Of a stretch of DNA of 64,000 nt, positions 1 to 31,897 are shown piece after piece (position 1 is the stretch's first letter; the number at the start of each line of letters is the position of its first letter). A program made the translations under genes and the position numbers. Source of the DNA: an uncultured Candidatus Binatia bacterium (GTDB lineage Bacteria; Desulfobacterota; Binatia; Bin18); the NCBI GenBank assembly GCA_965243735.1, contig CBDEVZ010000008.1, positions 1,624,302-1,688,301 on the forward strand. The letters run 5' to 3'. Under the pieces are notes generated by a model that searched no databases, was not told the origin of the DNA, and saw nothing but the letters and a program-made list of their open reading frames with translations.

Positions 1-3000
1 GTGGAGCCTGACCGTCTACGGCCACCGCTCCACCCCCGGCGCACCGGATATCGACGAAGTGACTCCGGGGCCCGGCTCGCTCAGCGTGTCCTGGAAGGCG
101 CCGGACAACAGCGGTGTCTCCGCCGTCACCGGCTATGATGTCCGCTACATCAAGGCCAGCGAGGACGATACCAAGGACGACAGCTGGACGGTGGTGGCCA
201 CCGGCTGGACCTCCGGCGACGATCTGGAATACACCATCCCCAGCTTGGAGAGTGACGTTGCCTACGATGTCCAGGTGCGGGCGGTCAACGCCCAGGGCGA
301 CGGCGCCTGGTCGTCTACGGCCACCGAGAAACCCTCCAGCGACGCGCCCTACTTCTTGGAAGGCACCGCCACCACCCGAAGCGTCGAGGAGAATGCGTCT
401 GCCGGGACGAACGTCGGCGCCCCGGTCGCCGCTCGTGATCCCAGTATCCCCGCCGAGACCTTGACCTACACGCTTTCGGGCGCCGACGCCGGTTCGTTCG
501 ATATCGACAGCACTACCGGGCAACTGTCGGTCGCCACGGGAGCAGCGCTGGACCACGAAGCCACACCCAGCCTGACCGTCATCGTGGCGGCCACCGACCC
601 GGTGACGACCGACGATCCCACCGCCGACTCCGACTCCATCACCGTGACCATTACCGTCGTCGATGTGGATGAGCCGCCCACGCTGACGGGGGAAACCAGC
701 ATTGCGTATGCCGAGAACGGCTCGCTCCCGGTCGCCATCTACACCGCCACCGACCCGGAAGACGAGCCGATCACCTGGCTGCCGCTGACCGGGACGGACA
801 GCGGCGACTTTACCCTCAACAATGGCGTCCTGAGCTTCGCCACCGCTCCCGACTATGAGGCGCGCGGCGACAACGCCTATGCGGTGACCGTGCGTGCCTC
901 TGATGGCACTACGAGTTCCGCGACCCTGGATGTCACGGTCGCCGTCACCAACGTGGATGAAGTCCACACGCTGACGGAATTGTTCCGTATCGCGTCGTAT
1001 GCCGAGAACGGCACCGGGGCGGTGGCGGAATACAGCGTCAGTGACCCGGAGGGCGTGTCACCCACGTGGTCTCTGGCCGGAACCGACCGGGGCGACTTCA
1101 CCATTGCTGGCGGCGTCCTGCGCTTCGCAAACACCCCCGACTACGAGCGACCTGCCGACGCCGGTGGCAACAACGTCTATGCGGTGAGCGTGCAAGCCAC
1201 CGCCGGGGAGCACACCGTCGAGCAGGTTGTCACCATTCGTGTCACCAACGTGGATGAGCCGCCCACGCTGACGGGGCCGACCAGCGTGCCGCCGTATGAC
1301 GAGAACAGAACAACGCAGGTCGCCCGCTACACCGCCACCGACCCGGAGGGGGCGACCGTCCTGTGGTCGGTGGCCGGGGACGACGCTGAGGACTTCACCA
1401 TCAGCGGCGGCGTGCTGCACTTCGACCCCGCTCCCGACTACGAGGCGCGCGCCGACGCCGACGGTGACAATGACTATGAAGTGACCGTGGTCGCCTCCGA
1501 TGGCGGCCTCACCACGCGGCAGGCCCTCACCGTCACCGTCACCAACCTGAACGAAGCGGGCAGTCTGACCCTGTCATCGGAGTATCCGCAGGTCGAGACC
1601 CCCTTCACTGTGACCCTGACCGATCCCGACATCGTCTCTGCTAGCACCTGGGTCTGGGAGCGGTCTGCCAACCGGAGTGCGTGGACGGAGATTGATGGTG
1701 CAACCTCGGACCGCTACACGCCGGCGGACGAGGACATGAATCATTACCTGCGAGTCACGGTGGACTACACCGACGGGCACACGGCGTCCGGCAGCAAAAC
1801 GCTCCAGCACACGGCCCCCAACCGGGTCCGGGCGGAGCCGGGCGAGAACAACTTTCCGGTTTTCCCGGACACTGCCACGACCCGCAGCGTCCCGGAGAAC
1901 ACGCCAGCCGGGAGGAACATCGGCGACCCGGTAGTGGCCACCGACCTGGACGACGACCCGCTGACCTACTCCCTGGACGCTACGGGCGATAGCGTCTTCG
2001 CCATCGACAGCAGGTCCGGCCAGTTGCGGACCGAAGCGGCGTTGGACCATGAGGACACACCCAGCTACGCCGCTACCGTGACGGCCACCGACCCCTCCGG
2101 AGACTTCGATTCCATCGACGTGACCATCACCATTACCGACATAGACGAACCGCTCACGCTGATGGGGCCGAGCACTGTCCCATACGAAGAGAATAGCTCC
2201 GGGACCGTCGCTACCTTTAGCGCTGCCGACCCGGAAGAGGAACCCATCACGTGGACGCTGGCGGGAACTGACCGCACCGCCTTCACCCTCAGCGGCGGCG
2301 TCCTCACCTTCAACGATCCCCCCGACTACGAGGCGGACAACCGCTACAGCGTGACCGTGGAAGCCACCGCCGGCAGCCATACCGCGCGGCAGCCCGTCAC
2401 CGTCCGCATCACCAACGTGAACGAGGAGCCGGCAATCACCGGGCCGACCGCTATTGCCGATTATCTGGAGAACTCTACGGGACCCGTGGCCACCTACCGC
2501 GCCACCGACCCGGAACGCGATCCGATTCAATGGACGCTGGAGGGCACCGACTCGGACGCCTTCACCCTCAACGCCGGGGTGCTGCGCTTCCTCGCTCCGC
2601 CCGACCACGAAACCCAGGCGAGCTACTCGGTGACCGTAGTGGCCTCCGATGGGGAACTGACTGATGCACTGCCCGTGACGATTACCGTGACCAACGCGGA
2701 CGAAGCGGGCGATCTGACCCTGTCGTCGGTGCAGCCGCAGGTGGGCACCGAGCTGACTGCCATCCTGAGCGATCCCGACTGTAACCCTGACTGCGCTTCC
2801 GGTTCTAGCTGGGTCTGGGAACAGTCGCGTGACCGGCGGACATGGGAGGCCGTTAAGGGGACGCCCACCACCAAGTATACGCCGGAGACGGACGACCTGG
2901 GTACCTACCTGCGCGTTACGGCGACGTACACCGACGGGACCGGGTCGGCCAAGAGATCGCAGGTCATCTCGCCCCATGCGGTGCGGACGGAACCGCCCAC

Positions 3001-4642
3001 CAACGACCCTCCGGCCTTTCCTGCGTCCCCGCCCACTCGCACCGTTGGCGCCGATGCGAGCGCGGGCAGCCGCGTTGGGGCGCCGGTGACAGCCGCGGAC
3101 CCCGAGGACGACCCGCTTACCTACACGCTGAAGGATGAGCCGGGCGCGGCCTGTTTCGCTATCGATTGGGTCAGCGGCCAGATCGCGGTGGGCTCACAGG
3201 GACTGCTGCCCTGTGCCAGCACGGCCACGATCTCAGCCGGGCAGCGGACGATCAGCCCGCGAGTCGAGGTCCCCAATACCTACGAATTCACCGTGACCGC
3301 CACTGACCCGTCCCTGGACTCCGCCGTAATTCCCGTCTTCATCACCGTCGCGTCTTCTCCGTCGCCGCCCCCGCCAGGGCCGGGCGGTGGCGGTGGCAGC
3401 GGTGGAGGCGGTGGGGGGGGTGGCGGCGGAGGCGGCAGCCGTGAATCCACCTGCGCCGAGGACCTGCACGGCAACAGCGCGACTCAAGCCACCGGTATAG
3501 CCCTGGCCACCGAGACTGCCGGAGCCGTCTGTCCAGCTGCGGACGTGGATTATTTTACCGTGGCCGCTCCCGGCCGGGGCCTCCTGTTTGTCGATACCAC
3601 CAGTGGCGTGCCGACCCGCGGCACGCTCTGGCAGAACGGCGTGGTCTTAGCGTCCGGCTCCACGCGGGACAGTCGGCAGCCGGGGGACCGCCTCGGCGCC
3701 CGCGTGGAGGCCGGCCCAGTTGTCGTGGCGCTGCAAGGGCAGGGGGGGGCGACTGGGGCGTACACCCTCGTCATCACCTTCGCGCGGGGCTTTCTGGAGA
3801 ACCCGGGTCTCGACTCCTTCCAGAGCGGCGTTGGTGTGCTGTCGGGTTGGGTGTGTGAAGCGGACCTGGTGGAGATCGAGCTGAATGGGATGCCGCAGGA
3901 GGCGGCGTATGGCACGGATCGGCTGGACACCCAAGGCGTATGCGGGGACACGAACAACGGCTTTGGCCTCTTGTTCAACTGGAACCTGCTGGGGGATGGC
4001 GCGCATGAAGTGGTGGCCGTGGTCGATGGCGTCGAACTCAGGCGCGCCACCGTCACGGTAACGACGCTGGGGGAGGAGTTCGTGCGGGGGGTGAACGGGG
4101 AATGTACTGTCGCGGACTTTCCCAGTGTCGGCGAGAGTGTCCGGCTGGTGTGGCAGGCAGCCAGTCAGAGCTTCGTGCTGGCTGAGGGCGCCGTACCGAC
4201 CGGGGCGTCCCGCTCTGGGATAGCCGGGGTGGGGTATCTGGAGAACCCGAGCGCCAACTCGTTTCAGAGCGGCATCGGCGTCCTCTCGGGCTGGGTATGC
4301 GAGGCTGAGGAGGTGGTCATCGCGATTGGCGACCTGATCCCACAAGTGGCCGGCTACGGCACAGAGCGCCTGGACACCCAAGCAGTGTGCGGCGACACGG
4401 ATAATGGCTTCGGCTTGCTGTTCAACTGGAACCTGCTGGGGGACGGGGAGCACGAAGTGGTGGCCACCGTCGATGGCACAGAGTTAGGCCGGGCCACGGT
4501 GCGGGTGACGACCTTGGGCGAGGAGTTCGTGCGGGGGGCCGTGGGGGAATGTACGGTGGACGACTTCCCTGTGCCCGGCGAGACGGTCACGCTCACCTGG
4601 CAACACAACAGTCAGAACTTTGTCATTACCCAGGTCGAGTGA
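1..4642 (+). CDS. 5'-truncated giant secreted surface protein: FN3 + ~10 cadherin-like repeats + Gly-rich linker + PPC domain + tandem novel C-terminal domain (CTD-A 3788-4215, CTD-B 4234-4639)
   Basis: ORF 59..4642 stays open to base 1 in the same frame, so the gene starts before the window. FN3 signature (SVSWKAP...YDVQVRAVN). Cadherin-like repeats (ATDPEDEPITW...PDYE). DVDYFTV...AGPVVVALQG matches a PPC domain. The terminal tandem ~135-aa module is shared with six other genes in the window. Confidence 0.85.
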   Translation, partial: WSLTVYGHRSTPGAPDIDEVTPGPGSLSVSWKAPDNSGVSAVTGYDVRYIKASEDDTKDDSWTVVATGWTSGDDLEYTIPSLESDVAYDVQVRAVNAQGDGAWSSTATEKPSSDAPYFLEGTATTRSVEENASAGTNVGAPVAARDPSIPAETLTYTLSGADAGSFDIDSTTGQLSVATGAALDHEATPSLTVIVAATDPVTTDDPTADSDSITVTITVVDVDEPPTLTGETSIAYAENGSLPVAIYTATDPEDEPITWLPLTGTDSGDFTLNNGVLSFATAPDYEARGDNAYAVTVRASDGTTSSATLDVTVAVTNVDEVHTLTELFRIASYAENGTGAVAEYSVSDPEGVSPTWSLAGTDRGDFTIAGGVLRFANTPDYERPADAGGNNVYAVSVQATAGEHTVEQVVTIRVTNVDEPPTLTGPTSVPPYDENRTTQVARYTATDPEGATVLWSVAGDDAEDFTISGGVLHFDPAPDYEARADADGDNDYEVTVVASDGGLTTRQALTVTVTNLNEAGSLTLSSEYPQVETPFTVTLTDPDIVSASTWVWERSANRSAWTEIDGATSDRYTPADEDMNHYLRVTVDYTDGHTASGSKTLQHTAPNRVRAEPGENNFPVFPDTATTRSVPENTPAGRNIGDPVVATDLDDDPLTYSLDATGDSVFAIDSRSGQLRTEAALDHEDTPSYAATVTATDPSGDFDSIDVTITITDIDEPLTLMGPSTVPYEENSSGTVATFSAADPEEEPITWTLAGTDRTAFTLSGGVLTFNDPPDYEADNRYSVTVEATAGSHTARQPVTVRITNVNEEPAITGPTAIADYLENSTGPVATYRATDPERDPIQWTLEGTDSDAFTLNAGVLRFLAPPDHETQASYSVTVVASDGELTDALPVTITVTNADEAGDLTLSSVQPQVGTELTAILSDPDCNPDCASGSSWVWEQSRDRRTWEAVKGTPTTKYTPETDDLGTYLRVTATYTDGTGSAKRSQVISPHAVRTEPPTNDPPAFPASPPTRTVGADASAGSRVGAPVTAADPEDDPLTYTLKDEPGAACFAIDWVSGQIAVGSQGLLPCASTATISAGQRTISPRVEVPNTYEFTVTATDPSLDSAVIPVFITVASSPSPPPPGPGGGGGSGGGGGGGGGGGGSRESTCAEDLHGNSATQATGIALATETAGAVCPAADVDYFTVAAPGRGLLFVDTTSGVPTRGTLWQNGVVLASGSTRDSRQPGDRLGARVEAGPVVVALQGQGGATGAYTLVITFARGFLENPGLDSFQSGVGVLSGWVCEADLVEIELNGMPQEAAYGTDRLDTQGVCGDTNNGFGLLFNWNLLGDGAHEVVAVVDGVELRRATVTVTTLGEEFVRGVNGECTVADFPSVGESVRLVWQAASQSFVLAEGAVPTGASRSGIAGVGYLENPSANSFQSGIGVLSGWVCEAEEVVIAIGDLIPQVAGYGTERLDTQAVCGDTDNGFGLLFNWNLLGDGEHEVVATVDGTELGRATVRVTTLGEEFVRGAVGECTVDDFPVPGETVTLTWQHNSQNFVITQVE

Positions 4643-4886: not shown

Positions 4887-7800
4887 GTGATGGAATCCAA
4901 CTCTCAATTTTGGATATGGCCACGCTGGTGGGCGGCCGGGCTGCTCGTCCTGCTGCTCGTGGGGTGGTCTGCCAGTGCCCACGCCCAATCGGCCCCCTAT
5001 CAGGTAACCTTTGAGGGCAACTGGACCACTACCGCGACTCCCGATGGGGTGCCCGCCGGGGCACATTTCTCGCCCTTGATCGGGGCCGTCCACAATGACC
5101 AGGTCACTTTCTGGCAGAGTGGCGGTACGGCCAGCACGGGGATCGAGAGTATGGCGGAGATTGGGGGCACGAGCGCCCTCAAATCCGAGATCACCAATGC
5201 CGGCTCAGCGGCGTCCAGCACCATTGAGCGCAGTGGCAATATCGGCGTGACTGCTGAAGTCACGGTGGATATCACGCTCAGCCCCACCCATCCTCTGGTG
5301 ACCCTGGTGACGATGATTGCCCCGAGCCCGGATTGGTTTGTGGGTGTGGCCGACCTGTCCCTGCTTGATGCCCAGAACAAATGGCTGGCGTCACATACGA
5401 TCAACTTGTTTCCGTACGACGCCGGGACCGAGGACGGCACCGAATTTTCGCTAAGTAACGCCGCGACCGATCCCCAGGGCACGATTACCAGCATCGAGGG
5501 GACCGGGAAGTTCTCGAATGAGCCGATGGCGACCCTCACCTTCACGCTGCAGGATGCCGCCCCCGAGATCACCAGCGCGACGACCTTCCCGGTTGACGAG
5601 GGCACCACGACCGTGACGACGCTGACCGCCGTAGACGCGAACGACGACCCGCTGACCTGGACGATTCCGGCAGATGCGGCGGGCGGGGCGGATGCCGCGC
5701 AGTTCACGCTCAGCTCTGCGGGGGTTCTGGCCTTTGCCACGGCCCCGGACTACGAAGCCCCGGCCGACGCGGACACAGACAACCGCTACGAGGTGACGGT
5801 CCAGGTGAGCGACGGCGCCACTCCCGTCACGGCCGCCCTCGAAGTCACGGTCGCCAACGTTATCGAACTGACGGCGATCAGCGGACCGGCAACGGTCTCG
5901 TTCGACGAAAACGGTTGGGGCCGGGTGGCCACGTTCACGGCCTCGTCGGAGGAGGACCGGGCCGGCATCGAATGGGTCCTGGGCGGGGATGATGCGGCCC
6001 ACTTCACGATCGATAGTCCGCCGGGCGCGCTCCGCTTCGACATCGATCCGGTCGCGCCGCGCCTCTTCGCCCAGCCGCCGGACTTCGATGCGCCGGTGGA
6101 CGACGATACGGACAACGCGTACGCGCTGACCCTGCTGGCCCGAGCAGGGTCGGCCATCAGCGACACGGCCTTCCCGGTCACGGTCACCGTCACCGACGTG
6201 GACGAGGACGGCACGCTCTCGCTGTCCGCGACGCGTCCTGCGCTCGGTGTGGCGTTGACCGCCACGCTCGCCGACGCGGACGGGGTGGTTGACGAATCGA
6301 CGGTTTGGACGTGGGAGCGATCCGCGGGCCGCAACGTCTGGGCCGCAGTCGACGGGGCGGATGCGGCCGCGTACACGCCGGTGGCCGCCGACACGGGCGA
6401 GTTCCTGCGGGTCACGGCGACCTATACGGACGAGCACGGGAGCGGCAAGACGGTCCGCGAAGTGGCGGCGGACGTGGTGCGGGGGCCGCTGCTGACGAGC
6501 CTGACGGCCGAGACGACGGATTCCCAGGCGGACTCAACGCAGTCCCTGTTCCCGGCGTTCAATGCGCAGACGCTGCACTACGGCATTGGCTGCAATACCA
6601 CCGACACGATGACGCTCACCGTGTCGGGGCCGGCCAACGCCCGAATCTCAGTTGATGGCGTACAGGCCGCAAGTGCGACCGCGATCAGCGTTTCTGTGGG
6701 CGAAGACGACGACGTGTCGATCACCGTCACCGACACCAGCGGAGCCCGCACGACGTACACCGTCCACTGCATGGCGGACGAGTTGTTTGAGTTCGAGATG
6801 CACAGGTACCCGGGCGCCACCGACGTGACGGAGGATCTGTACATGTTCACGCTGCAAGGTGTGGAGTATCTCGTGGCCCTGGACCGGAACGGCGTACCGA
6901 GAATTGGCCGTAGCGCCGCCATTCGCCATTGGTTCGCCATCAGGTTCACCCGGGTCGGCGCCGACGGCGCGTACCGGTACGCGTACGCCCCCAAAGACGG
7001 GGATGGGTACTGGATTCTGGACGAGAACCTGGAAGTGATCGACGATACGGTGAGGACCGTGGCGCCGCTGACCACCATCAACTGGCATGACTTCCGGTTG
7101 CTGGAGGACGGGAATTACCTGCTGATGGCCTGGGAACCGGCCACCCGCGATCTCAGCGGGCTCGACCTGCCGTTTCCCGCCGGGCAGGATTTCACCGCCG
7201 TCAGTGTGCTCGACTCAGCGGCGCAGATCGTCACGCCCGACGGCGAGGCCGTCTTCAACTGGAATTCCTGGGACCAGGTGGCCCTTGAAGACTGCGTGCA
7301 GCACCGCTTCCCCGTGGTGCTCCCCGCTGCTCCCCAAGGCAGGCAAGCAGGTGGGGGCTACGCGCATATCAACGGAATGGATGTTGCGGATGGTGTGTTC
7401 GTTGGCTCCCTGCGTGGTTGTTCGCAAGTCGTGGGCGTCGATCTGGACACCGAAGAAGTGATCTGGCGGATGGGCCGCACCAACCTCAGCGACGAAGAGT
7501 GGAGGGAGCGTGGGCTCGTGCCGCCGTTGGACTTGATCAACGATCCTGAGGGGGAGTTCTGCGGACAGCACACAACGCAGTTTCTGCCCAACGGGAATGT
7601 CTTCTTCTACGACAACGGTGTGGTTTGCGTGATCGATCCGTTGACGTTCGAAGAGTTGGGGCGGGAAGGACGGGACTTCAGCCGGGCGGTGGAGTACGCG
7701 CTGGACCTTGACAACGACGAAGCGGTCTTCGTGCGCGATCACTCCCTGCATGGCGAAAGAGTGCATCTTGCCCCTGCCACGGGCAGCGTGGATCCCCTGG

Positions 7801-10800
7801 ACAACGGGGACTGGCTGGTCAGTTGGGGCCGCCCCTCGGAGGAGTATCTCCCGAACAATGAAGCCGTCACGCTGGTCGACCCGGACACCGGCCAGGAGAA
7901 ACTCGCCATTCGGTTCACAGTCGTGGACCCCAACGCGGAGCGCCTTCGCCACATCAACGCGAGCGTTGTGCCGGCGGAGGCGCTGGCGCCGCAACCGACG
8001 CCATTGACGGCCGAGATCACGGACAGCCCGTCTCCCGCCACGTTCCACACCGGCGCCGAGGGCGCGCCGCAAGTCGTGGTGGCCTTCAGCCGGCCCGTCG
8101 TCGATTTCGCCCCGACCACGCCCTCGCTCAGCGTGACCGGTGCGACGGTCGCCAGCGTCAGCGCCCACGTCGTGGCCGGCGCACCGGCCAACGCCTACCT
8201 GGTCACGCTCACGCCCGACGGCGACGGGGCCATCACCTTCGGCTTCGTGACCGACCAGCCCTGCGCCGACGGCGGCATCTGCACGGCCGACGGGACGCCG
8301 CTGTCGGAAGTACCGACCGCCCTCACCATCCCCGGCCCGGTCACCGCCAGCTTTGGTGCGGCGAGCTATAGCGTCAACGAGGGGGAGAGCGTCAGCGTCG
8401 TCGTGGAGCTGGACCGCGCCCACGGGCGGCCGGGAGACGTCACGATTCCCCTGGCCGTGGAGAGCGGCAGCACGGCAACGGCCACCGACTATACCCTGCC
8501 CCTCCAGGTGACGTTTGGCCCGAGTGAGACTCGCCAGACGGTCTCACTCGCCACCCACGCCGACACCAGCCTTGAAGAGGCCGAGACCGTTGAGGTCACC
8601 TTCGGTGCGCTGCCGTCCGGTGTCAACGCGGGGACCACCACGGTAACAAGCGTCACGATCACCGACCGGACTCCTGCGGCCCGGTTTAATCTGACCCTCA
8701 ATCCAACCACCATCGTGGAGGGCGGCACGGCCGACGTGCGCGCCAGTATCACCAACGGCGTCACGTTTACCACGGATCAGACCCTCACCCTCGGCTTCAG
8801 TGGCAGCGCGACACAGGAGACGGATTACACCATCGACTCTGCCACCCTCAGCCTGCTGGCAGGACAATCATCGGTCGCGACTATTTTGCGGGCGACGGAC
8901 GATGCCGATACGGAACCCGCCGAGACAATCAGGGTGGCGGTCCACCACGAGACGACCCAGGTCGCGACGCAGACGGCCACGGTCCCGGCCAGCGACCAGC
9001 CAGCAGTGACCCCCCAGATTGCGGTCCGCGCCGGGCGGAATCCGGCCCAGGAAGCCGAGGGCGCGCTCTTCACCGTGACGCGGACCGGCGAGACCACGAC
9101 GAATTTGACCGTGGCCGTCGAGGTGACGGCGAGTGGGAGCATGCCGCTGGCGGGCACGCCGCCCACGGCGGTGACCTTCAGCGTGGGGCAGGAGAACGTG
9201 TCCCTGGCTGTCCCCACCGTGGACGATACGATTATTGAAGGTCCCAGCGAGCGGAGCGTGGTGCGGGCCGAGGTGGTGGCCGACCCGAACACCCCACCGC
9301 TCTACCTGCGCGGCTCCCCGGCCAGTGCCGAGGTAACCGTCGAGGACGATGACGAGGCCGAGTTTGGCGTGACGGTTGCTCCGAACCCGGTGGCAGAGGG
9401 TAGCACGGCTAACGCGCAGGTCGCGATCACCAACGGCGTCACGTTTACGGACGATCAGACGGTGAGCCTCACCTTCAGCGGCGTGGCGACACGGGAGACG
9501 GATTACACCGTGGGAGCCACCACCCTGACCCTCACGGCGGGACAGTCGTCCGTTGTAGCGACCCTCAGCGTGACCGACGACGGCGACAAGGAACCGGCCG
9601 AGAGCGTGCATATTATCGCCCAGCATGCGGGCCGGGAGGTGGGGCGGGCAACGCTCACCATCGCGGCCAGCGAAGACACCAAGCCGCCGACCCTGGAGCG
9701 GGCGGAAGTGCTGCGGGATGGGCGCACCCTGCGGCTGACCTTTAGTGAACCGCTTGACGAAGCCGCGCCCTACCGCCCGGCCGCCACGGCCTTCGCCGTC
9801 ACGGTAGCGGGCGCGCCGCGTGGGGTCAGGACGGTGACGCTCACCGGGGAGACGGTCGTCCTGGGGCTGGCCCGCCCGGTCGGACCGGGCCAAGAGGTGA
9901 CGGTGAGCTACACCGCGCCTGAGAGCGGCAGTGGGCACCCCGCCTTGCAGGACCCAGCGGCCCATGTCGTGGCGAGCTTTGTCGATGCGGCGGTGGACAA
10001 TCAGGCCCAGGCCCGCAGTCAGCCGCCCGGTGGCTCCGGTGGTGGGGGGGGCGGGGGGGGCAGTGGCAGCGGGGGCAGTCCGGACGCTCACGGCAATACC
10101 GCGGCGCAGGCTACGGTCGTCTCGCTCGGCGCGCCCGCCCCGTGGCGGTCGGCCACGAGCGGGCAGCTCAGTCCGGCCAGCGATGTGGATTACTTCACCT
10201 TCACGGTCCCTCAGGCCGGAGTCCTGGTGGCCGAAACCACCGGCGCCACCGCTACGGTCGGGACGGTGTGGCAAGATGGGGTCGCATTGGGCACGGCGGC
10301 CAGTGGCGGGGCGGGCCCGAACTTTCGGCTGACTGTCCCTGTACACGCCGGGCCGGTGGTGGTGGCCGTGCGGGGCCAGGGGGAGCAGACCGGGGCGTAT
10401 CGGTTGGTAACGCGCCTGGTCGTCGGCTTTCTGGAGAATCCCGGTCCCGATTCCTTTCAAAGCGGTATTGGCGTGGTGTCGGGCTGGGTGTGTGGGGCGG
10501 CCAGGGTCGAGATTGCACTCAACGGCGTACTCCACGAGGCGGCGTACGGGACGGAGCGGCTGGACACGGAGCCGGTGTGCGGGGCCAGCGCCACCGGCTT
10601 TGGGGTGTTGTTCAACTGGAATCTGCTGGGCGATGGCGCGCATGAAGTGGTGGCGTTCGTGGACGGCATCGAACTGACCCGGGCTACGGTCACGGTAACG
10701 ACGCTGGGGGAGGAGTTCGTACGGGGTGTGAGCGGGGAGTGTACTGTCGCGGACTTTCCGAGCGGAGGTGAGACGGCCACCCTGGCGTGGCAAGAGGCGC

Positions 10801-11279
10801 AGCAGAGCTTCGTGCTGGCCGAGGGCAGCGCACCGACCGGGGCTTCCCGCTCCGGGATAGCCGGGGTGGGCTTGCTGGAAAACCCGAGTGCCACCTCGTT
10901 TCAGAGCGGCGTCGGGGTGCTGTCGGGCTGGGTGTGTGCGGCGGAGGCAGTCACGATTACGCTCGGCGACCTGGCTCCGCAGGTGGCCGGCTACGGCACC
11001 GAACGGCTGGACACGCTGGATGTCTGCGGGGACACGGCCAACGGCTTTGGGCTGTTGTTCAACTGGAACCTGCTGGGCGATGGCGAGCATGAGGTCATTG
11101 CCACGGTGGATGGGACCGAGCTGGCCCGCACGACGGTGCGGGTGACGACCTTGGGCGAGGAGTTCGTGCGGGGGGCCACAGGGGAGTGCATCGTGGCGGA
11201 CTTCCCGCATCCGGGCGAGACCGTCACGCTCACGTGGCAACAGACCAGCCAGAACTTTGTCCTCACCGACGTGGAGTGA
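4887..11279 (+). CDS. Giant secreted protein: signal peptide, spondin_N-like domain (SPDWFVGV), cadherin-like repeats, arylsulfotransferase-like beta-propeller (tentative), multiple Calx-beta and Ig-like domains, Gly-rich linker, PPC, tandem novel CTD (A 10425-10850, B 10868-11276)
   Basis: 2130-aa ORF with GTG/ATG start at 4887/4890. N-terminal hydrophobic signal (WWAAGLLVLLLVGWSASAHA). Calx-beta-like blocks (ASFGAASYSVNEGESVSV...). DVDYFTF PPC motif. The CTD tandem is the same as in the other giants. Confidence 0.85.
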   Translation: MMESNSQFWIWPRWWAAGLLVLLLVGWSASAHAQSAPYQVTFEGNWTTTATPDGVPAGAHFSPLIGAVHNDQVTFWQSGGTASTGIESMAEIGGTSALKSEITNAGSAASSTIERSGNIGVTAEVTVDITLSPTHPLVTLVTMIAPSPDWFVGVADLSLLDAQNKWLASHTINLFPYDAGTEDGTEFSLSNAATDPQGTITSIEGTGKFSNEPMATLTFTLQDAAPEITSATTFPVDEGTTTVTTLTAVDANDDPLTWTIPADAAGGADAAQFTLSSAGVLAFATAPDYEAPADADTDNRYEVTVQVSDGATPVTAALEVTVANVIELTAISGPATVSFDENGWGRVATFTASSEEDRAGIEWVLGGDDAAHFTIDSPPGALRFDIDPVAPRLFAQPPDFDAPVDDDTDNAYALTLLARAGSAISDTAFPVTVTVTDVDEDGTLSLSATRPALGVALTATLADADGVVDESTVWTWERSAGRNVWAAVDGADAAAYTPVAADTGEFLRVTATYTDEHGSGKTVREVAADVVRGPLLTSLTAETTDSQADSTQSLFPAFNAQTLHYGIGCNTTDTMTLTVSGPANARISVDGVQAASATAISVSVGEDDDVSITVTDTSGARTTYTVHCMADELFEFEMHRYPGATDVTEDLYMFTLQGVEYLVALDRNGVPRIGRSAAIRHWFAIRFTRVGADGAYRYAYAPKDGDGYWILDENLEVIDDTVRTVAPLTTINWHDFRLLEDGNYLLMAWEPATRDLSGLDLPFPAGQDFTAVSVLDSAAQIVTPDGEAVFNWNSWDQVALEDCVQHRFPVVLPAAPQGRQAGGGYAHINGMDVADGVFVGSLRGCSQVVGVDLDTEEVIWRMGRTNLSDEEWRERGLVPPLDLINDPEGEFCGQHTTQFLPNGNVFFYDNGVVCVIDPLTFEELGREGRDFSRAVEYALDLDNDEAVFVRDHSLHGERVHLAPATGSVDPLDNGDWLVSWGRPSEEYLPNNEAVTLVDPDTGQEKLAIRFTVVDPNAERLRHINASVVPAEALAPQPTPLTAEITDSPSPATFHTGAEGAPQVVVAFSRPVVDFAPTTPSLSVTGATVASVSAHVVAGAPANAYLVTLTPDGDGAITFGFVTDQPCADGGICTADGTPLSEVPTALTIPGPVTASFGAASYSVNEGESVSVVVELDRAHGRPGDVTIPLAVESGSTATATDYTLPLQVTFGPSETRQTVSLATHADTSLEEAETVEVTFGALPSGVNAGTTTVTSVTITDRTPAARFNLTLNPTTIVEGGTADVRASITNGVTFTTDQTLTLGFSGSATQETDYTIDSATLSLLAGQSSVATILRATDDADTEPAETIRVAVHHETTQVATQTATVPASDQPAVTPQIAVRAGRNPAQEAEGALFTVTRTGETTTNLTVAVEVTASGSMPLAGTPPTAVTFSVGQENVSLAVPTVDDTIIEGPSERSVVRAEVVADPNTPPLYLRGSPASAEVTVEDDDEAEFGVTVAPNPVAEGSTANAQVAITNGVTFTDDQTVSLTFSGVATRETDYTVGATTLTLTAGQSSVVATLSVTDDGDKEPAESVHIIAQHAGREVGRATLTIAASEDTKPPTLERAEVLRDGRTLRLTFSEPLDEAAPYRPAATAFAVTVAGAPRGVRTVTLTGETVVLGLARPVGPGQEVTVSYTAPESGSGHPALQDPAAHVVASFVDAAVDNQAQARSQPPGGSGGGGGGGGSGSGGSPDAHGNTAAQATVVSLGAPAPWRSATSGQLSPASDVDYFTFTVPQAGVLVAETTGATATVGTVWQDGVALGTAASGGAGPNFRLTVPVHAGPVVVAVRGQGEQTGAYRLVTRLVVGFLENPGPDSFQSGIGVVSGWVCGAARVEIALNGVLHEAAYGTERLDTEPVCGASATGFGVLFNWNLLGDGAHEVVAFVDGIELTRATVTVTTLGEEFVRGVSGECTVADFPSGGETATLAWQEAQQSFVLAEGSAPTGASRSGIAGVGLLENPSATSFQSGVGVLSGWVCAAEAVTITLGDLAPQVAGYGTERLDTLDVCGDTANGFGLLFNWNLLGDGEHEVIATVDGTELARTTVRVTTLGEEFVRGATGECIVADFPHPGETVTLTWQQTSQNFVLTDVE

Positions 11280-11748: not shown

Positions 11749-12054
11749 ATGCATATTGAACACATGGGTTTGCCTGCCGCCTCCCCAGACAGGGGAAGTC
11801 GGGAGTGGGAGGCGGGACGACAGGAACGGGCCAGGTCGCTGATAAACGGGCGGTTCCTCGCCGCGCTGCCCGTCCTCGTCCTGATGACCCTGGTGGTCAA
11901 CGGGGCGACCGTGGCGGGCACGGTACGGACATTGGACGGAACCTATCATATCCGCTCGGTGGGTGACGGCTTATACGCCATCAGCGAGGTAGAGGAGCCT
12001 TCGCTCAACTGCGGGGTCGAGGAGCCCCATGCTGAGACGGATCACCAGCATTGA
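11749..12054 (+). CDS. Small (~101 aa) protein with hydrophobic segment and C-terminal ...LVVNG.TV.GTVR...IRSVG.GLY.ISEV.E.PLNCGVE.PH.ETDHQH; propeptide-like partner of the downstream metzincin
   Basis: ORF 11647..12054, trimmed to ATG 11749 because the listed 11647 start overlaps palindrome M2. Paralog of ORF 22959..23579. Its TGA stop overlaps the TTG start of the next gene (ATTGA). The NCGVEEP motif resembles a metzincin cysteine switch. Confidence 0.5.
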   Translation: MHIEHMGLPAASPDRGSREWEAGRQERARSLINGRFLAALPVLVLMTLVVNGATVAGTVRTLDGTYHIRSVGDGLYAISEVEEPSLNCGVEEPHAETDHQH

Positions 12055-15000
12055 CGACATCGCCGGCCTCCTGGACTCTCTCCCGACACCTCATACGCCT
12101 GCTGCTCGTGGTGCTCGTGCTCCTGCCCTGCTTGCCAGGGGGGCTCGTCCACGCGCAGTCGGTGATTGATGTCGCCGTCTTCTATACGACCGCCGCCAAA
12201 GACGATGAGGGCGGGACCGATCAGATCAAGACCAAGATCGACGAGATGGTTGCAGCGACCAACCTCGCCTACGCAGACAGTGGCGCGAACCAGACCATCA
12301 AATTGGTGCATGTAGGAGAAGTAGCATACACCGCGTCGGACAGGCTGAGTACAGATCGCAGTCGTCTCGAGAATCCGTCGGACGGCCATATGGACGAAGT
12401 CCACGCCACTCGTGACCGAGTCTGGGCGGACATCGTCATACTGCTCCGCCGTCCGGGCGACGTAGGGGGGGTGGCGTCCCTGATGCACACGCTATCGACG
12501 GACCATGCCGCCGAAGCCTTTGCCGTTTCTACCGTCCACGCCGGCAATTTCATGCATGAACTGGGCCACATCATGGGGCTTGCCCATGACCGGTATGAAG
12601 CCTGCTCGCACGATACAAGCAATCCGCAGTGTCCCACGCTGGTGACACCCTACGCGTATGGCTATGTGAACCAGGAGGCGTTTGAGTCGGGAGCGTCATC
12701 ATCAAAACGGTGGCGCACGATCATGTCATACTCTAATCAGTGTGACGATGCCGGGGTTTCCTGTTCCCCGAGCTTGCTCCGCTTCTCCAATCCAAATAAG
12801 ACCTACCGGGGCGATCCCATGGGCGCGGCCGGTACCCAGTTCACGAACGATCTGGACGGGCCGGTCGATGCGGCGCGCACCCTTAACGACACCCGCCGGA
12901 CCGTGGCGAACTTTCGGCAGGGGCGAGCCGTGCAGGTGAGCTTTGGGTCCGCGACCTACGCGGCGACCGAAGGGGGGCGGGCGCTCGTGGCGGTGAAGCT
13001 GAACACTGCGCCGGGCCGGGAGTTGGTCATTCCGCTCACGGCGCGGAGCACGGACGGGGCGTGGTCCGGCGACTATAGCCTGCCGACGAGCGTGACCTTC
13101 AGCTCCACCGCTGTCAGAAAGACCTTCATCTTCGAGGTCACCGACGACGCCATCGACGAGCGCGCCGAGACCGTCGAGCTGGGCTTCGGGCTGCCGCTGC
13201 CCGGCGGCGTCACCGTGGGCAGTCAGGACAGTGCGACAGTGACCCTGCGGGACAACGATCCCGCGACAACCGCCGCCCCGCACATCAGCACGGTCGCCAT
13301 CACCTCGGACCCTGGGCCGGGCGGCGTCTACTCCGTCGGCGATCAGATCGAGGTGACGGTCGTCTTCACCAAGCCTGTGACCGTGATCGGGACACCCGTG
13401 CTCGCGCTGACGGTCGGCACGGATACGCGCCAGGTGCTGTGTCGGGACGCGGCGAGCGAGACCCTGACGTGTGCCGACAGCGTTCCGCTGGGCGCCAGTG
13501 ACGCCGACGGGGTGAGCGTCGCGGCAAACAGCCTGAGACGGGCCGGGGCGACGATCCGGGACGCCGACAACCAGAACGCCACCCTGACCCATGCCGCCGT
13601 AGCCGCTGACAGCGGCCACGCCGTGGACGCGGTGAAGCCGGTGTTGCAAACCGCGACCGTGGATGGCGGGACAGTAAAATTGACGTATAACGAAGCGCTG
13701 GACGAGACCTCAGTTCCCACAGCGGACGCTTTTACGGTGAGCGTCGATGGGACGACCCGGCCGATTGACAGCATACAGATATCCGGGCAGGTCGTCACGC
13801 TGAGACTGGTCTCCTGGATACGTGCCGGCCGACTCGTGCGGCTGAGATACCGTCTCCACGGCCGCGACTTCATTCAGGACGTGCCCGGTAACCTCGCCCT
13901 GGCTTTTTCCAACCAGACGGTCCAGAACCTGACCCCGGAGCCGGTGTACGACGCGGACGCGGACGGGCTGATTGAAATCACGACCCTGGCCCAGTTGGAT
14001 GCGATCCGGCACGATCTGGACGGTGATGGCACGCCGACGGACACCGGGGCAGCAGCCTATGCCACAGCGTTTCCCGATGAGATACGGGTCGTCTGCGACA
14101 CCAGTAGCGAGGTCTGCGAGGGGTATGAGCTGACGGCCGACCTGGACTTCGACACCGACGAGGACGGGCAGGTCGATGCGGAAGACACCGCCTACTGGAA
14201 CGACGGGAAGGGCTGGCAACCCATCGGCACGAGTGCTGACGCGTTCCATGCGATGTTTGAGGGCAACGGCCACACCATCCGCCATCTCTTTGTTGATCGG
14301 GACACTTCCTACACGGGACTGTTCGGTCAGACAGGCTATCACTGCGATATCCGTGGTGTCGGGCTGATCGATGTCGAAGTGACGGGGAACAACTACGTCG
14401 GAGGACTGGTCGGAGACAATGGTGGCCTGATTCACGCCAGCTACGCGACCGGGCGGGTGACGGGGAACAGCGACATCGGGGGGCTGGTCGGGAGAAATGC
14501 TGGCGGCGGGATCACGACCAGTTATGCGACTGGGCGGGTGACGGGCGTGTCGCGGGTGGGGGGGCTGGTCGGAGACAATGGCAGTAGCTTTGGCTTTGGC
14601 GCGATCACGGCCAGCTACGCGACCGGACGGGTGCCGGGCCAGGACCGGGTGGGGGGGCTGGTCGGGAGCAACGGTGGCACGATCACGGCCAGCTACGCGA
14701 CCGGGCGAGTGACAGGCCGCCGGGTGCGGGTGGGGGGGCTGGTTGGATACAATGTTGGTGGCACGATCACCACCAGCTACTGGGACACGGCCACCTCGGG
14801 CCGGTCGAGCGGGTCTCTTGGGACGGGCCAGACCACCGCCCAGTTGCAGACGCCTACCGGCTATAGCGGGATTTATGCGGACTGGAACGTGGACCTGGAC
14901 GGCGATGGTACGGACGACGACCCGTGGCACTTCGGCTCAGGGAGCCAGTATCCGGCGCTGCGGGTAGACTTTGACGGGGATGAGACGGCGAGCTGGCAGG

Positions 15001-18000
15001 AGTTCGGCTATCAGCTCCGCGCCGGTTCGACCCTGACGACGATGGCCGAGACGGGGCCCATGGAGCTGAGCTGGACGGCGGCGGACGTGAGTGATTGGAC
15101 CCCCGCGCCGGACGTGACCTACGCCGTCTACCGCAACACCGGCTCGACACCCGTCGCGCAAGACCTCACCGCGCGCGAGTATGCCGACCCCGCTGTGATC
15201 CGTGGCACCACCTACGCCTACCAGGTGGCTGCGGTGGTGGATGGGGGGGAAGCCGCCCGCAGTGGGCTCGTAGAGGCGACCGCGCCCAACCAGCCGCCGA
15301 TGTTCGATGACGTGACCGGCACGGCCCGCACCATCGCCGAGAACACGCCGGCGAACCGGCCCATCGGGGAGCGGGTGACGGCGACGGACCCGGACGGCGA
15401 CCAACTGACCTACTACCTGGAAGGCACGGACGCGGACTTCTTTTCCATCACTGGAAGGACCGGCCAGCTACGGACCAAGGCCGCGCTGGACTACGAGACC
15501 CAGGACACCTACGCAGTCACCGTGGCGGTCCGGGACAGCAAGGACATCAACGACACGGCCGACATGGCGATGGATGATGAGATCGATGTGACCATCACCG
15601 TTGCCGATGTGAACGAGGCGCCGGTGTTCGATGCGAGTCTCCCCACCACCTACCGTGTGGCCGAGAATACGCCACGGGGCCAGCGTATCGGGGTCTTCTC
15701 CGCTATGGACCCGGACACCTTGACCCCGGACTATGCCGACCTGACCTACAGTCTGAGCGGCACCGACGCCGCAGTGTTCTTCCTTGACCCCATCACCGGG
15801 GAGTTACAGACCCGCGAACCCCTGGACTACGAGAGCCGGCACACCTATCAGGTCGCCGTGGCGGTTCGCGACGGCAAGGATGCCGACGGCGTTGAAGCGC
15901 TGACGGAGACGGATGCCGAACTTGCGGTGACGATCACTGTCCTGAACGTGGATGAAGCGGGCATGGTCGCGCTGTCGTCAAGCCTGCTGCAGGAGAAACG
16001 GGCGCTGACGGCCACACTGAGCGACGTGGACGGGACGCTGAGCGCCATCACGTGGCAGTGGGCGCGGTCTCCCGACCAGACCACCTGGACCGACATCCCC
16101 GGGGCGATGTCCAGCGGGGCGCTGACGGCGACCTACACGCCGGACGCGACCGACGTGGGGCAATACCTGCGGGCGAGGGCGATGTACACCGACGGCCACA
16201 GCATGGGGAAGACCGCCCAGGCGGTGACGGGCACCACAGTGCAGGCCGCCCCGCAGGTACGGTTGGTGCTGTCGCCGGATGCGTCGATCACGGAGAGCGG
16301 CACGGGGAACACCGTCACCGTGACCGCCGAACTGACGCCGGCGGCTGAGGACGAGACGGCGGTGAAGCTGAGCGAGATGCCGGAGCACTACACCTTGAGC
16401 GGCACCACCCTGACCATCCCGCTGGGCGCCACGCACAGCAACGCCGTGACACTGACGGCTACGGACGACGCCGTGGACGGGCCGGAGGAGACCAAGGCAA
16501 TCCCTGTCACGGGGATACTCACCAAGAACCTCCTGGTGACCGCTCCGGATGCGGTCACGCTTCGCATCACGGATGACGATACCCGCGGAGTGATGGTCAC
16601 CCCGACCGAGCTGACCGTAGAAGAAGGTTCGTCCGAGGACTACGAGGTGATCCTGACTTCCGAGCCGACGGAACCGGTGACCGTGACGGTGACCGCGCCG
16701 ACGAACCCGGACGTGACCGTGAACCGGACCGAGCTGGTCTTTCAGCCGGGGCGCTGGAATACGGCGCAGCCAGTAACAGTGGCGGCGGCGCAGGACCCCA
16801 CCGCCGATGACGAGCCGGCGACGATCAGCCACACGGTGAGCGGCGGGGACTACACCGGAGAAAGCGTGGAACCGGTGGCCGTGACGATCGAAGACGACGA
16901 GGGGCCATCCACGGCGGTCGTGCTGAGCGTGCAGCCACCGACGGTGGGAGAAGGAAGCAGCCGGACGGTGACGGTGAGGGGCAGCCTCAATCGGGCGCTG
17001 CGCCAGCAGGCGACCCCGGTGAGTGTGGAGGTCGAGGCGGGCACGGCCACACAGGGCACGGACTTCACCGCCATATCGCCCTTCACCCTGACAATTCCGG
17101 CGAACACGAAGAGCGGGACGGCAACCTTCACCCTGACGCCGGTAGACGACAGCCTGGATGAGCCGGATGAGACCGTGACGGTGAGCGGCAGTACCACAGT
17201 TGGGCTGGATGTGACCGATGCGTCGCTGACCATCACCGACACCGACGCGCCGCCCACGGTGACACTGATCCTGACCCCGGACGCAATCGGCGAAGACGGT
17301 GGGCAGAGCACGGTCACGGCGACGCTCAGCCATCCGTCGAGTGCGGCGACGGAGGTCGCAGTGGCGGTCACGGCAGACGCGGACGTCGTGCGACAAAGCG
17401 GCACCACCCTGACGATTGCAGCCGGAGAGACAGCCAGCACCGGGACCGTGACGCTGACGGCGGTGGACAACTCCGTCGACGCGCAGGACACGCTGGTGAC
17501 GGTGAGCGGGCAGGCAGACAACGCGCTGGCTGTGAACGGGCCGGCTGCGGCCACGTTGACCATCACCGATGACGATCCGCCGGAGGTGGAGGGCGAGAGC
17601 GCTCCACAGTACGTGGAGCACGACACCGCGCCGGTGGCCACGTACACGGCCACGAACCCGGCCGGCGGCAGGTTGACGTGGTCTCGGTCCGGGCCGGATG
17701 CGAGCGAGTTCCGTGTCGACCAGAACGGCGTGCTGCGCTTCGTTGCGCCACCCGACTTTGAGGCGAGGCGGAGCAATGTCTACCACGTGACGGTCGCCGC
17801 CTCCGACGGAACCCGCACCGGCTCCCTCGCTGTCACCGTCACTGTGCAGGATGCCCCCGGTACGGTCCGCCTGTCTCCGGCGCAGCCCCGGATCGTCTCG
17901 CCGCTGCGCGCGACGCTGCGCGACCCGGACGGGGTGGAGACGGTCGCCGAGTGGTGCTGGGAGCGGTCCCGCTACCACGACTTTCAGACCGATAGCAGCC

Positions 18001-19100
18001 TCCTTGCCTGCACCGTCACCGACAGCGCCGCCGCCACCTATCAACCGGAGGACGCCGACCTCGGCTACTATCTGCGGGCCACCGCGACCTATACCGACGG
18101 CCACGGCGCGACCAACAAAACGGCGGCGGCGGCCACGACCACGACCGTCTCGGTTCGGCCGCCCCCGTCTCAGGGCGGTGGCGGGAGCAGCGGCGGCAGC
18201 GGCAGTAGCAGCGGCGGTGGCGGTCAGCCGCAGGAAGCCCCCATCGGATATTTGGAGAACCCGGGGACTCATTCCTTTCAGAGTGGGATCGGCATCATTT
18301 CGGGTTGGGTGTGTGCGGCGGAGACCGTGGAGATAGAGCTTGCCGGCGTGCGGCAGCCGGCGGCGTACGGCACGGCGCGGCTGGACACCCACGGCGTGTG
18401 CGGAGATGCGGACAACGGGTTTGGGTTGCTGCTCAACTGGAACCTGCTGGGCGACGGCGCACATGAGGTCGCGGCCTACGTGGATGGTATTGAGTTGGGC
18501 CGGGCGACGGTGACGGTGACGACGCTGGGGGAGGAGTTCGCGCGGGGGGTGAGCGGGGAGTGCACCGTCGAAGACTTTCCGAGTGCGGGCGAGGGGGTGC
18601 GGTTGGTGTGGCAGGAGGCGCAGCAGAACTTCGTGCTGGCCGAGGGCAGGGCGCCTACGGGCGTGCACCGGTCGGGAACCGCCAACGTAGGCTATCTGGA
18701 GAACCCGAGTCCGCACTCGTTTCAGAGTGGCATTGGGGTCATCTCGGGTTGGGTGTGCGAGGCCGAGGAAGTCGTCATCACGCTCGGAGACCTGGCCCCA
18801 CAGGCAGCGGGCTATGGCACGGAGCGGCTGGACACGCGAGATGTCTGCGGAGACACGGACAACGGCTTCGGGTTGTTGTTCAACTGGAATTTGCTCGGTG
18901 ATGGGGAACATGTGGTCGTGGCGGTCGTGGACGACGTGGAACTGGGCCGGACCACCGTGCGGGTGACGACCCTGGGCGAGGAGTTCGTACGGGGAGCCGA
19001 GGGGGAATGTACCGTCCCGGACTTCCCCAGTCCGGGGGAGCGTGTGACGCTCACCTGGCAGCAGAACAGTCAGAATTTTGTCGTCACGGGAGTGGAGTGA
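12051..19100 (+). CDS. Giant secreted metzincin: signal peptide, reprolysin-like Zn-metalloprotease domain (HELGHIMGLAHD), Calx-beta, Ig-like (SwmB-like), GLUG-like Gly-rich repeats (GGLVG...SYATGRV), FN3, cadherin repeats, Calx-beta array, Gly/Ser linker, tandem novel CTD (A ~18247-18650, B ~18690-19097); no PPC
   Basis: 2349-aa ORF. HExxHxxGxxHD zinc site. Repeated GGLVG motifs. Cadherin-like DPDGD...LDYE. The CTD tandem is the same as in the other giants. Start listed as TTG 12051; GTG ~12108 is an alternative. Confidence 0.85.
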   Translation: MTTSPASWTLSRHLIRLLLVVLVLLPCLPGGLVHAQSVIDVAVFYTTAAKDDEGGTDQIKTKIDEMVAATNLAYADSGANQTIKLVHVGEVAYTASDRLSTDRSRLENPSDGHMDEVHATRDRVWADIVILLRRPGDVGGVASLMHTLSTDHAAEAFAVSTVHAGNFMHELGHIMGLAHDRYEACSHDTSNPQCPTLVTPYAYGYVNQEAFESGASSSKRWRTIMSYSNQCDDAGVSCSPSLLRFSNPNKTYRGDPMGAAGTQFTNDLDGPVDAARTLNDTRRTVANFRQGRAVQVSFGSATYAATEGGRALVAVKLNTAPGRELVIPLTARSTDGAWSGDYSLPTSVTFSSTAVRKTFIFEVTDDAIDERAETVELGFGLPLPGGVTVGSQDSATVTLRDNDPATTAAPHISTVAITSDPGPGGVYSVGDQIEVTVVFTKPVTVIGTPVLALTVGTDTRQVLCRDAASETLTCADSVPLGASDADGVSVAANSLRRAGATIRDADNQNATLTHAAVAADSGHAVDAVKPVLQTATVDGGTVKLTYNEALDETSVPTADAFTVSVDGTTRPIDSIQISGQVVTLRLVSWIRAGRLVRLRYRLHGRDFIQDVPGNLALAFSNQTVQNLTPEPVYDADADGLIEITTLAQLDAIRHDLDGDGTPTDTGAAAYATAFPDEIRVVCDTSSEVCEGYELTADLDFDTDEDGQVDAEDTAYWNDGKGWQPIGTSADAFHAMFEGNGHTIRHLFVDRDTSYTGLFGQTGYHCDIRGVGLIDVEVTGNNYVGGLVGDNGGLIHASYATGRVTGNSDIGGLVGRNAGGGITTSYATGRVTGVSRVGGLVGDNGSSFGFGAITASYATGRVPGQDRVGGLVGSNGGTITASYATGRVTGRRVRVGGLVGYNVGGTITTSYWDTATSGRSSGSLGTGQTTAQLQTPTGYSGIYADWNVDLDGDGTDDDPWHFGSGSQYPALRVDFDGDETASWQEFGYQLRAGSTLTTMAETGPMELSWTAADVSDWTPAPDVTYAVYRNTGSTPVAQDLTAREYADPAVIRGTTYAYQVAAVVDGGEAARSGLVEATAPNQPPMFDDVTGTARTIAENTPANRPIGERVTATDPDGDQLTYYLEGTDADFFSITGRTGQLRTKAALDYETQDTYAVTVAVRDSKDINDTADMAMDDEIDVTITVADVNEAPVFDASLPTTYRVAENTPRGQRIGVFSAMDPDTLTPDYADLTYSLSGTDAAVFFLDPITGELQTREPLDYESRHTYQVAVAVRDGKDADGVEALTETDAELAVTITVLNVDEAGMVALSSSLLQEKRALTATLSDVDGTLSAITWQWARSPDQTTWTDIPGAMSSGALTATYTPDATDVGQYLRARAMYTDGHSMGKTAQAVTGTTVQAAPQVRLVLSPDASITESGTGNTVTVTAELTPAAEDETAVKLSEMPEHYTLSGTTLTIPLGATHSNAVTLTATDDAVDGPEETKAIPVTGILTKNLLVTAPDAVTLRITDDDTRGVMVTPTELTVEEGSSEDYEVILTSEPTEPVTVTVTAPTNPDVTVNRTELVFQPGRWNTAQPVTVAAAQDPTADDEPATISHTVSGGDYTGESVEPVAVTIEDDEGPSTAVVLSVQPPTVGEGSSRTVTVRGSLNRALRQQATPVSVEVEAGTATQGTDFTAISPFTLTIPANTKSGTATFTLTPVDDSLDEPDETVTVSGSTTVGLDVTDASLTITDTDAPPTVTLILTPDAIGEDGGQSTVTATLSHPSSAATEVAVAVTADADVVRQSGTTLTIAAGETASTGTVTLTAVDNSVDAQDTLVTVSGQADNALAVNGPAAATLTITDDDPPEVEGESAPQYVEHDTAPVATYTATNPAGGRLTWSRSGPDASEFRVDQNGVLRFVAPPDFEARRSNVYHVTVAASDGTRTGSLAVTVTVQDAPGTVRLSPAQPRIVSPLRATLRDPDGVETVAEWCWERSRYHDFQTDSSLLACTVTDSAAATYQPEDADLGYYLRATATYTDGHGATNKTAAAATTTTVSVRPPPSQGGGGSSGGSGSSSGGGGQPQEAPIGYLENPGTHSFQSGIGIISGWVCAAETVEIELAGVRQPAAYGTARLDTHGVCGDADNGFGLLLNWNLLGDGAHEVAAYVDGIELGRATVTVTTLGEEFARGVSGECTVEDFPSAGEGVRLVWQEAQQNFVLAEGRAPTGVHRSGTANVGYLENPSPHSFQSGIGVISGWVCEAEEVVITLGDLAPQAAGYGTERLDTRDVCGDTDNGFGLLFNWNLLGDGEHVVVAVVDDVELGRTTVRVTTLGEEFVRGAEGECTVPDFPSPGERVTLTWQQNSQNFVVTGVE

Positions 19101-31786: not shown

Positions 31787-31897
31787 GCCCCACCGGGGTG
31801 AATCCGCGCGGCTTGTTCGCATTTTCTTTCATTTTCTCGGTCCTCTCTGCCCATCTGGGCAGCGTATTTTTCCTGACGATCATGTACAGGCAGTGAA
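31787..31897 (+). promoter_or_regulatory. Post-stop module M5: hairpin, CT tract (31811-31846), palindrome CTGCCCATCTGGGCAGCG (31847-31864), TGTACAGGCAG box (~31884)
   Basis: Conserved module family. Confidence 0.45.

Follow-up and report, generated by a model that had tools for sequence, protein, structure and literature searches.

A tandem Ig-like domain at the ends of unrelated secreted proteins in Candidatus Binatia, a candidate surface tether

S-layer homology (SLH) domains and other non-covalent cell-wall-binding repeats occur in multiple copies, at the N- or C-terminal end of many unrelated Sec-exported proteins of one genome. A layout of this kind is found in the stretch of DNA analyzed here (the window), 64,000 nucleotides of contig CBDEVZ010000008.1 (positions 1,624,302 to 1,688,301, forward strand) from an uncultured Candidatus Binatia bacterium. 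Seven plus-strand genes, numbered 1 to 7 in their order along the window, finish with the same A-B tandem of a domain of about 136 amino acids, and a matrixin protease finishes with one diverged copy. The likeness to SLH modules lies in the multi-copy placement at either end of proteins, the conservation across paralogues and the linkers before the passengers; it is one of architectural logic, not of homology.

We propose that the tandem works independently of its position, as a non-covalent tether that attaches to a conserved ligand on the surface or in the matrix of the producing cell, and put the probability of this reading at about 45%. The tandem-bearing proteins are Sec-exported multidomain proteins in which the A-B pair, modelled as rigidly packed, nearly always occupies one of the two ends. 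After export, the pair would bind one conserved ligand of the producer's envelope or extracellular matrix, for which a surface glycan (lipopolysaccharide, capsule, exopolysaccharide) or a receptor protein are candidates, and this binding would hold passengers of dozens of kinds, both adhesin-like and hydrolytic, on display at the cell surface. What speaks for a shared targeting or tethering module is the combination of a position that is terminal yet not tied to one end, rigid duplicated copies, flexible linkers, dozens of unrelated passengers per genome and one strongly conserved sequence.

The duplicated domain, its conservation and its predicted fold

Translation and alignment place the tandem of gene 1 at 3788-4639 of the plus strand (copy A 3788-4195, copy B 4232-4639). 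Both consecutive copies contain the blocks [FY]LENP..SFQSG[IV]GV[LI]SGWVC, YGT[ED]RLDT..VCGDT[DN]NGFGLLFNWNLLGDG.HEV, VTTLGEEFVRG..GEC.V.DFP and WQ..SQ[NS]FV[IL], so that the motifs described in a first-pass annotation of the window are exact in translation. That annotation had also listed seven giant genes ending in the tandem and a matrixin ending in a single diverged copy; all of them are seen in the open reading frames (ORFs) and in the alignment, at coordinates correct to 1-2 nt. The resulting 15 copies, seven tandems and one single copy, align over about 136 residues; the mean identity per column is 75%, and 46 columns are invariant. Together with profile matches outside the window that reach E 1e-190, these values argue that the similarity is not due to chance. 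The matrixin copy is diverged, at 52% identity. Three conserved cysteines per copy had been claimed, of which two (in GWVC and CGD) hold across the family and may form a disulfide, while the third is absent already in the matrixin copy. The window proteins terminate in ...QNFV[IVL]xxxE and have neither a hydrophobic stretch nor a basic tail.

The earlier statement that this is not a named Pfam domain agrees with our searches. Apart from scattered noise, no Pfam-A (2025) or NCBIfam r20 model covers the domain at E <= 1, and single-sequence and two-profile searches of PDB sequences returned nothing credible. The sole PDB match, 9hiv_F (E 0.18), was discarded, as its alignment covers part of an unrelated outer-membrane protein. 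One Pfam family, Big_7 (PF17957), recurs weakly (3 of 22 members at E >= 0.017); its best match has E 0.0098 and 17 bits, against a gathering threshold of 24.1 bits, so that the domain does not qualify as a member. A full-text literature search with the domain motifs and for surface proteins of Binatia and sponge symbionts found no description of the domain. Without a match in Pfam, NCBIfam, PDB or the literature, the domain family appears to be undescribed. We infer that it is the family that is new, and that the role proposed for it is of a kind well known from non-homologous systems.

Pairwise comparison of the paralogous copies in the window gives ratios of nonsynonymous to synonymous divergence (dN/dS) of 0.09-0.21, at synonymous divergences (dS) of 0.2-1.8 with a mean of about 0.9-1.0. 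Every pair but one has a dS of 0.5-1.8 and a nucleotide identity of 71-84%. Because dN/dS is this low at values of dS that are mostly 0.5-1.8, the copies are old paralogues under long-term purifying selection and not products of recent copying. Old copies with such ratios in turn speak for a constraint common to all of them, which a shared ligand would be expected to impose. Recent gene conversion as the general cause of their similarity was considered and rejected on the grounds of dS. The exceptional pair are the B copies of gene 5 (31376-31783) and gene 7 (41109-41516), with 93% nucleotide identity and a dS of 0.21, which suggests recent exchange or gene conversion between only these two genes. 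Across the family, module identity is about 60-70%. In the family-wide comparison (P0121-P0270), the two copies within a single protein average 72-75% identity and equivalent copies of different proteins 66-69%, whereas the window shows the opposite pattern, with B copies 79-88% identical among themselves and A and B copies 66-71% identical. As judged by these identities, both concerted evolution and spread of the tandem as a unit would be compatible with the data.

An AlphaFold2 model of the gene 1 tandem, computed from an alignment of 139 sequences, has a mean predicted local distance difference test score (pLDDT) of 93.8, a predicted template modelling score (pTM) of 0.85, no low-confidence segments and a fixed A-B geometry. 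In the model, each domain is all-beta, with about 12 strands, except for one short helix. The model contains a seven-strand Ig-like/E-set beta-sandwich core that can be superposed on known Ig-like modules, and the core is accordingly best described as a generic sandwich of this predicted class. Added to it are N-terminal strands (xLENP..SFQSG) and a C-terminal extension of about 45 residues (TTLGEEF..DFP..WQ..QNFVI). When the secondary-structure map of the model is set against conservation in the alignment, the motifs that the family conserves best would fall into these additions. Foldseek searches against the PDB returned only generic multi-Ig matches (template modelling score about 0.2) and no solved structure with the A-B arrangement. 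A domain pair of this kind could also serve homo- or hetero-oligomerization, in that A-B would be an intramolecular pseudo-dimer and the modules of different proteins would associate, turning the exoproteome into a cross-linked coat or mesh. Generic Ig-like folds do resemble many dimerization domains, but they do so through chance topology, and we regard oligomerization as rather improbable.

Placement, passengers and hosts of the tandem

A profile search over 1.84 billion representatives clustered at 50% identity retrieved 2,759 proteins at E <= 1e-3, of which 1,187 reach E <= 1e-30. A separate homologue search returned almost only proteins of 270 aa or less, many of which begin inside the domain; these were not counted as stand-alone proteins, since they look like fragmentary gene calls or an effect of length bias. 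Position and copy number were recorded for the 150 best representatives. The tandem lies at the extreme C-terminus in 116, directly after the signal-peptide cleavage site in 27 (18%) and internally in seven (5%). Exactly two copies are present in 147 of the 150, three in two and four in one; single-copy versions of the module occur as a minority. In an N-terminal example the junction reads ...VWAQ/ATLENP, with the Sec signal peptide before the stroke and the tandem after it. N-terminal tandems are also present in the raw DNA of Binatia loci (two genes in L042, and L046, L035, L036 and L008), in the order signal peptide, tandem, Gly/Ser/Glu linker and then PPC-like or other passengers, and the proteins of this type share no common alternative C-terminal anchor. 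The strictly C-terminal position assumed in the first-pass annotation is therefore contradicted, both among the representatives and in Binatia DNA.

This has consequences for the functions that had been suggested. Under one of them, the tandem would be a secretion or sorting signal for an outer-membrane translocon, like the C-terminal domain (CTD) of the type IX secretion system (T9SS) or the PEP-CTERM/exosortase system. The N-terminal and internal placements argue against an obligate C-terminal signal, as do the absence of a match to Por_Secre_tail or any other CTD model in Pfam or NCBIfam and the absence of a PEP, LPXTG or GlyGly motif, of a transmembrane helix and of a basic tail. Moreover, the module measures 2 x 136 aa, as against one unit of about 80-100 aa for such signals. 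In a survey of the neighbourhoods of 72 loci, from which antisense shadow ORFs had been removed, secretion, sortase or peptidase genes did not recur beside module genes. A role in sorting is therefore very unlikely, while anchoring and lectin-like binding, the other functions that had been suggested, are still viable.

The variety of the passengers speaks for the tether and bears out the earlier notion that exported proteins of unrelated kinds share the module as a reusable unit. In 45 sampled representatives the passengers include fn3, leucine-rich repeat (LRR), cadherin-like, He_PIG, Calx-beta, SRCR, FGE-sulfatase, CARDB, subtilase and M12 domains, and the family further contains YWTD propellers, GDSL lipase, S8 and M10 proteases and lysyl endopeptidase. 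The passengers are adhesin-like or hydrolytic. The GDSL lipase type was found in a locus (L073, 7917-10081; also L074 and L075) that encodes a signal peptide, the tandem and the lipase, and in which the second domain copy is broken by a frameshift. The identical frameshift is present in three independent assemblies, two metagenome-assembled genomes (MAGs) from NCBI and one metagenome from JGI, which makes a simple sequencing error unlikely.

The tandem is often preceded by a Gly/Ser/Pro linker or a PPC-like domain. A PPC domain before some tandems had been noted for the window, where the stretches in question (3398-3799 and 21200-21610) have no Pfam match to PPC; among relatives, PF04151 is found in one protein (P0170), and in many the tandem comes after a PPC-like consensus. 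Secreted proteases carry C-terminal PPC extensions. This association, and the fact that several passengers are proteases, would fit a folding or stability appendage, that is, an intramolecular chaperone or protective cap without a ligand, perhaps cleaved after export. Most passengers, however, are non-enzymes, and the N-terminal placement, the conservation across paralogues and the dN/dS of about 0.1-0.2 exceed the needs of a passive cap, so that we give this explanation a very low probability.

The nature of the ligand that a tether would bind has to be considered in the light of the hosts. When GTDB was scanned with one genome for each species, 207 coding stretches with the domain came up, and hosts were assigned for the best 80 of them. 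Nearly all of these 80 belong to Candidatus Binatia MAGs (with universally unique identifiers as isolate names); two other records are notable, one Binatia-like MAG labelled Thermodesulfobacteriota and a 2.65-Mb contig (L032) whose label is that of the actinobacterial sponge symbiont Candidatus Poriferisodalis. The tandem on that contig (9182-10432) is 75% identical and follows a poly-Pro linker, with no recognizable in-frame passenger upstream; it is possibly the result of horizontal transfer or a gene remnant. In a Binatia genome that consists of a single 4.8-Mb chromosome (OY761159.2), the parts of the chromosome that were examined contain at least 54 ORF segments with the domain, which amount to at least 160 kb or at least 3.3% of the genome, all of these figures being lower bounds. 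A divergent sister clade (about 50% identity) occurs in MAGs of Candidatus Competibacteraceae and other proteobacteria, none of them labelled sponge-derived; in this clade the tandem is also C-terminal, on fn3 and lysyl-endopeptidase-like proteins. The earlier term "lineage-specific" thus fits the concentration in Candidatus Binatia but not the sister clade.

The genome of the window itself is most likely that of a sponge-associated Binatia species, judging by its synteny with a Binatia MAG contig (CBDBEO010000001.1, 82-87% nucleotide identity), its G+C content of 64% and an ankyrin-repeat protein gene (41776-42576, Ank E 7e-49) that lies directly downstream of the seven-gene island and is devoid of the tandem module. 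Ankyrin-repeat proteins are of a "eukaryote-like" type typical of sponge symbionts. Binatia MAGs are reported by sponge genome projects (PMC12648040), and the order Bin18 is the sponge-associated lineage of Binatota (PMC8262859).

In such a setting, the tandem could be a lectin-like module for a ligand of the host or the environment, for example glycans of the sponge extracellular matrix, so that the passengers would end up in the matrix of the host and not on the bacterium. We consider this unlikely. The same tandem architecture is found in the sister clade, and because the domain occurs in these Competibacteraceae MAGs, a ligand on the bacterial side is favored over a sponge-specific one. 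In addition, the module is also carried by proteases and lipases, and by adhesins that already have binding domains of their own, and the domain sequences have no match to any carbohydrate-binding module (CBM) or lectin family of Pfam and no relative among PDB sequences.

Several points speak against the tether. Architecture is what leads, at every step, from a conserved terminal module to an anchor and its function, and the matches to the predicted fold are generic Ig-like modules that would carry no functional information. In the 72 loci, no conserved neighbour was found that could encode a receptor, sortase, translocon or attachment enzyme. Both Binatia and Competibacteraceae are presumed to be diderm, and a tether leaves the crossing of the outer membrane unexplained. 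Finally, the copy in the actinobacterial Candidatus Poriferisodalis, whose envelope should differ, is a poor fit to a ligand in the producer's own envelope.

In a narrower version of the tether model, the tandem would act as an address tag within a surface-display system that is so far undescribed: sponge-associated Binatia would capture it with a single receptor or a single glycan of the envelope, and Competibacteraceae with a counterpart. We offer this version only tentatively, as somewhat less probable than the general one. If it is true, the symbiont would display on its surface its whole "eukaryote-like" repertoire of adhesins and proteases, about 50 proteins that take up at least 3% of the genome.

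The genes of the window and their neighbourhood

Matches to Pfam bear out, gene by gene, the claim that the module-bearing genes of the window have unrelated N-terminal architectures. Gene 1 (59-4642, plus strand as all that follow), with its 5' end outside the window, encodes fn3 and cadherin repeats (Pfam), a PPC-like stretch and the tandem that was modelled. Gene 2 (4887-11279) encodes a signal peptide, Spond_N, an arylsulfotransferase-like (ASST-like) domain, Calx-beta and an SWM repeat before its tandem (10425-11276). Two paralogous genes, 3 (12051-19100, tandem 18246-19097) and 5 (23576-31786, tandem 30932-31783), encode a signal peptide, a Reprolysin-like M12 protease, GLUG and cadherin domains, with a Gly/Ser linker in gene 3. 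Gene 7 (38292-41519) combines a signal peptide, SWM repeats, Calx-beta and a long Gly/Ser linker with a tandem at 40665-41516. The matrixin (ORF 57705-58847, probable ATG 57765; Peptidase_M10, E 1.2e-8) has a signal peptide and its single diverged copy at 58416-58844. Sec signal peptides are clear for genes 2, 3, 5 and 7 and for the matrixin.

The other two genes carry frameshifts. Gene 4 (19560-22456) encodes a signal peptide, a PKD-like domain, DUF285/PARCEL repeats and the tandem (21602-22453). The DUF285 repeats and the tandem had been recognized before, and the real start can now be placed at 19560, with a signal peptide; a frameshift near 20245 puts the upstream part (19560-20309; signal peptide, PKD-like domain and first DUF285 repeats) out of frame with the ORF at 20249-22456. 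For gene 6 (31893-38169, tandem 37312-38166), the LRR and fn3 architecture stands, with the correction that a frameshift divides the gene into two ORFs (31893-36032 and 36076-38169). A shift of 1 nt lies near 36005-36030 within a Pro-rich run, where frame 0 stops after ...TPPSAPEHPD and frame 1 goes on with ...PPPALPSTPTSLTATITSGG... The syntenic counterpart in a related locus (L001, 3692-10408) is an intact single ORF of 2,239 aa. Either gene 6 is a pseudogene or the assembly is in error at this point.

Only members of expanded metabolic paralogue families recur as neighbours in the 72 loci; they encode a luciferase-like monooxygenase, a short-chain dehydrogenase/reductase (SDR), a family III CoA-transferase, an amidohydrolase, an amidase and an enoyl-CoA hydratase. 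No T9SS machinery (PorU, PorV, SprA and others) was found among these recurrent neighbours of the 72 loci, the only regions surveyed for it. Both the rest of the window (42700-64000) and the flanks of the 72 loci contain expanded metabolic paralogue families, Rieske oxygenases included. The metabolic families recur near module genes because they are simply abundant in these genomes.

Two further features of this part of the window were noted. A pair of genes at 52164-53921 encodes an AAA_15/AAA_21 ATPase and a DUF3226 protein, and matches the candidate defence system PDC-M38 of PADLOC (A 1.1e-84, B 2.5e-39) as well as AbiLi (2.3e-50). An IS1595-family transposase gene on the minus strand (59269-60204; DDE_Tnp_IS1595, E 3e-38) follows the matrixin gene at a distance of about 400 bp.

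Comparison with known systems

Large repertoires of eukaryote-like proteins are known in sponge symbionts, and the route by which they are displayed or delivered is largely obscure. Our data indicate that one unannotated domain pair marks essentially the whole repertoire of this type in one symbiont lineage. The module thereby offers a hidden Markov model (HMM) with which to define the exoproteome, a single reagent (the recombinant tandem) with which to look for the receptor or ligand and, with its more than 2,700 clusters, a candidate for a new Pfam family. Should it prove to be an anchoring module, it would represent a new mechanism of non-covalent surface display in diderm bacteria; if it is instead a lectin for the host matrix, a common determinant of host attachment would have been identified.

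In fold, the domain comes closest to Ig-like/X1 ("Fn3-like") linker modules of glycoside hydrolases, as in Thermotoga Man5 (6tn6), C. fimi Man26A (2bvt) and CbhA (3pe9), and to the dimerization domain of sulfite oxidase. With these modules it shares 10-21% sequence identity, with only about 80 of its 136 residues aligning, and its LENP, SFQSG, TTLGEEF, DFP and WQ..QNFVI motifs lie outside the core that is common to both. The likeness to Big_7 consists in a GW...V.V.vdG...G.H pattern that is typical of such Ig domains, in a match that spans only part of the domain core and scores well under the gathering threshold.

Among sorting signals, the CTD of T9SS substrates (Por_Secre_tail; TIGR04183, PF18962) has no HMM match in the domain, which is not obligatorily C-terminal, is arranged in tandem in a module about three times larger and occurs in lineages not known for T9SS. 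The PEP-CTERM, LPXTG, GlyGly-CTERM and MYXO-CTERM signals combine a signature motif with a transmembrane helix and a basic tail, a combination that the window proteins do not have. Dockerin (PF00404), a duplicated calcium-binding loop-helix, is likewise without a match in the domain, the predicted fold of which is a beta-sandwich. The SLH domain (PF00395), also without a match, is a helical unit of about 55 aa that comes in threes, whereas the domain described here is a predicted Ig-like beta-sandwich of 136 aa that comes in twos, and its hosts are presumed diderm Binatia and Gammaproteobacteria. Should the tandem indeed be the address tag of a display system, it would be a functional analogue of the attachment of SLH domains to secondary cell wall polymers (SCWP), of dockerin to cohesin and of T9SS CTD proteins to A-type lipopolysaccharide (A-LPS), built from an unrelated Ig-like pair.

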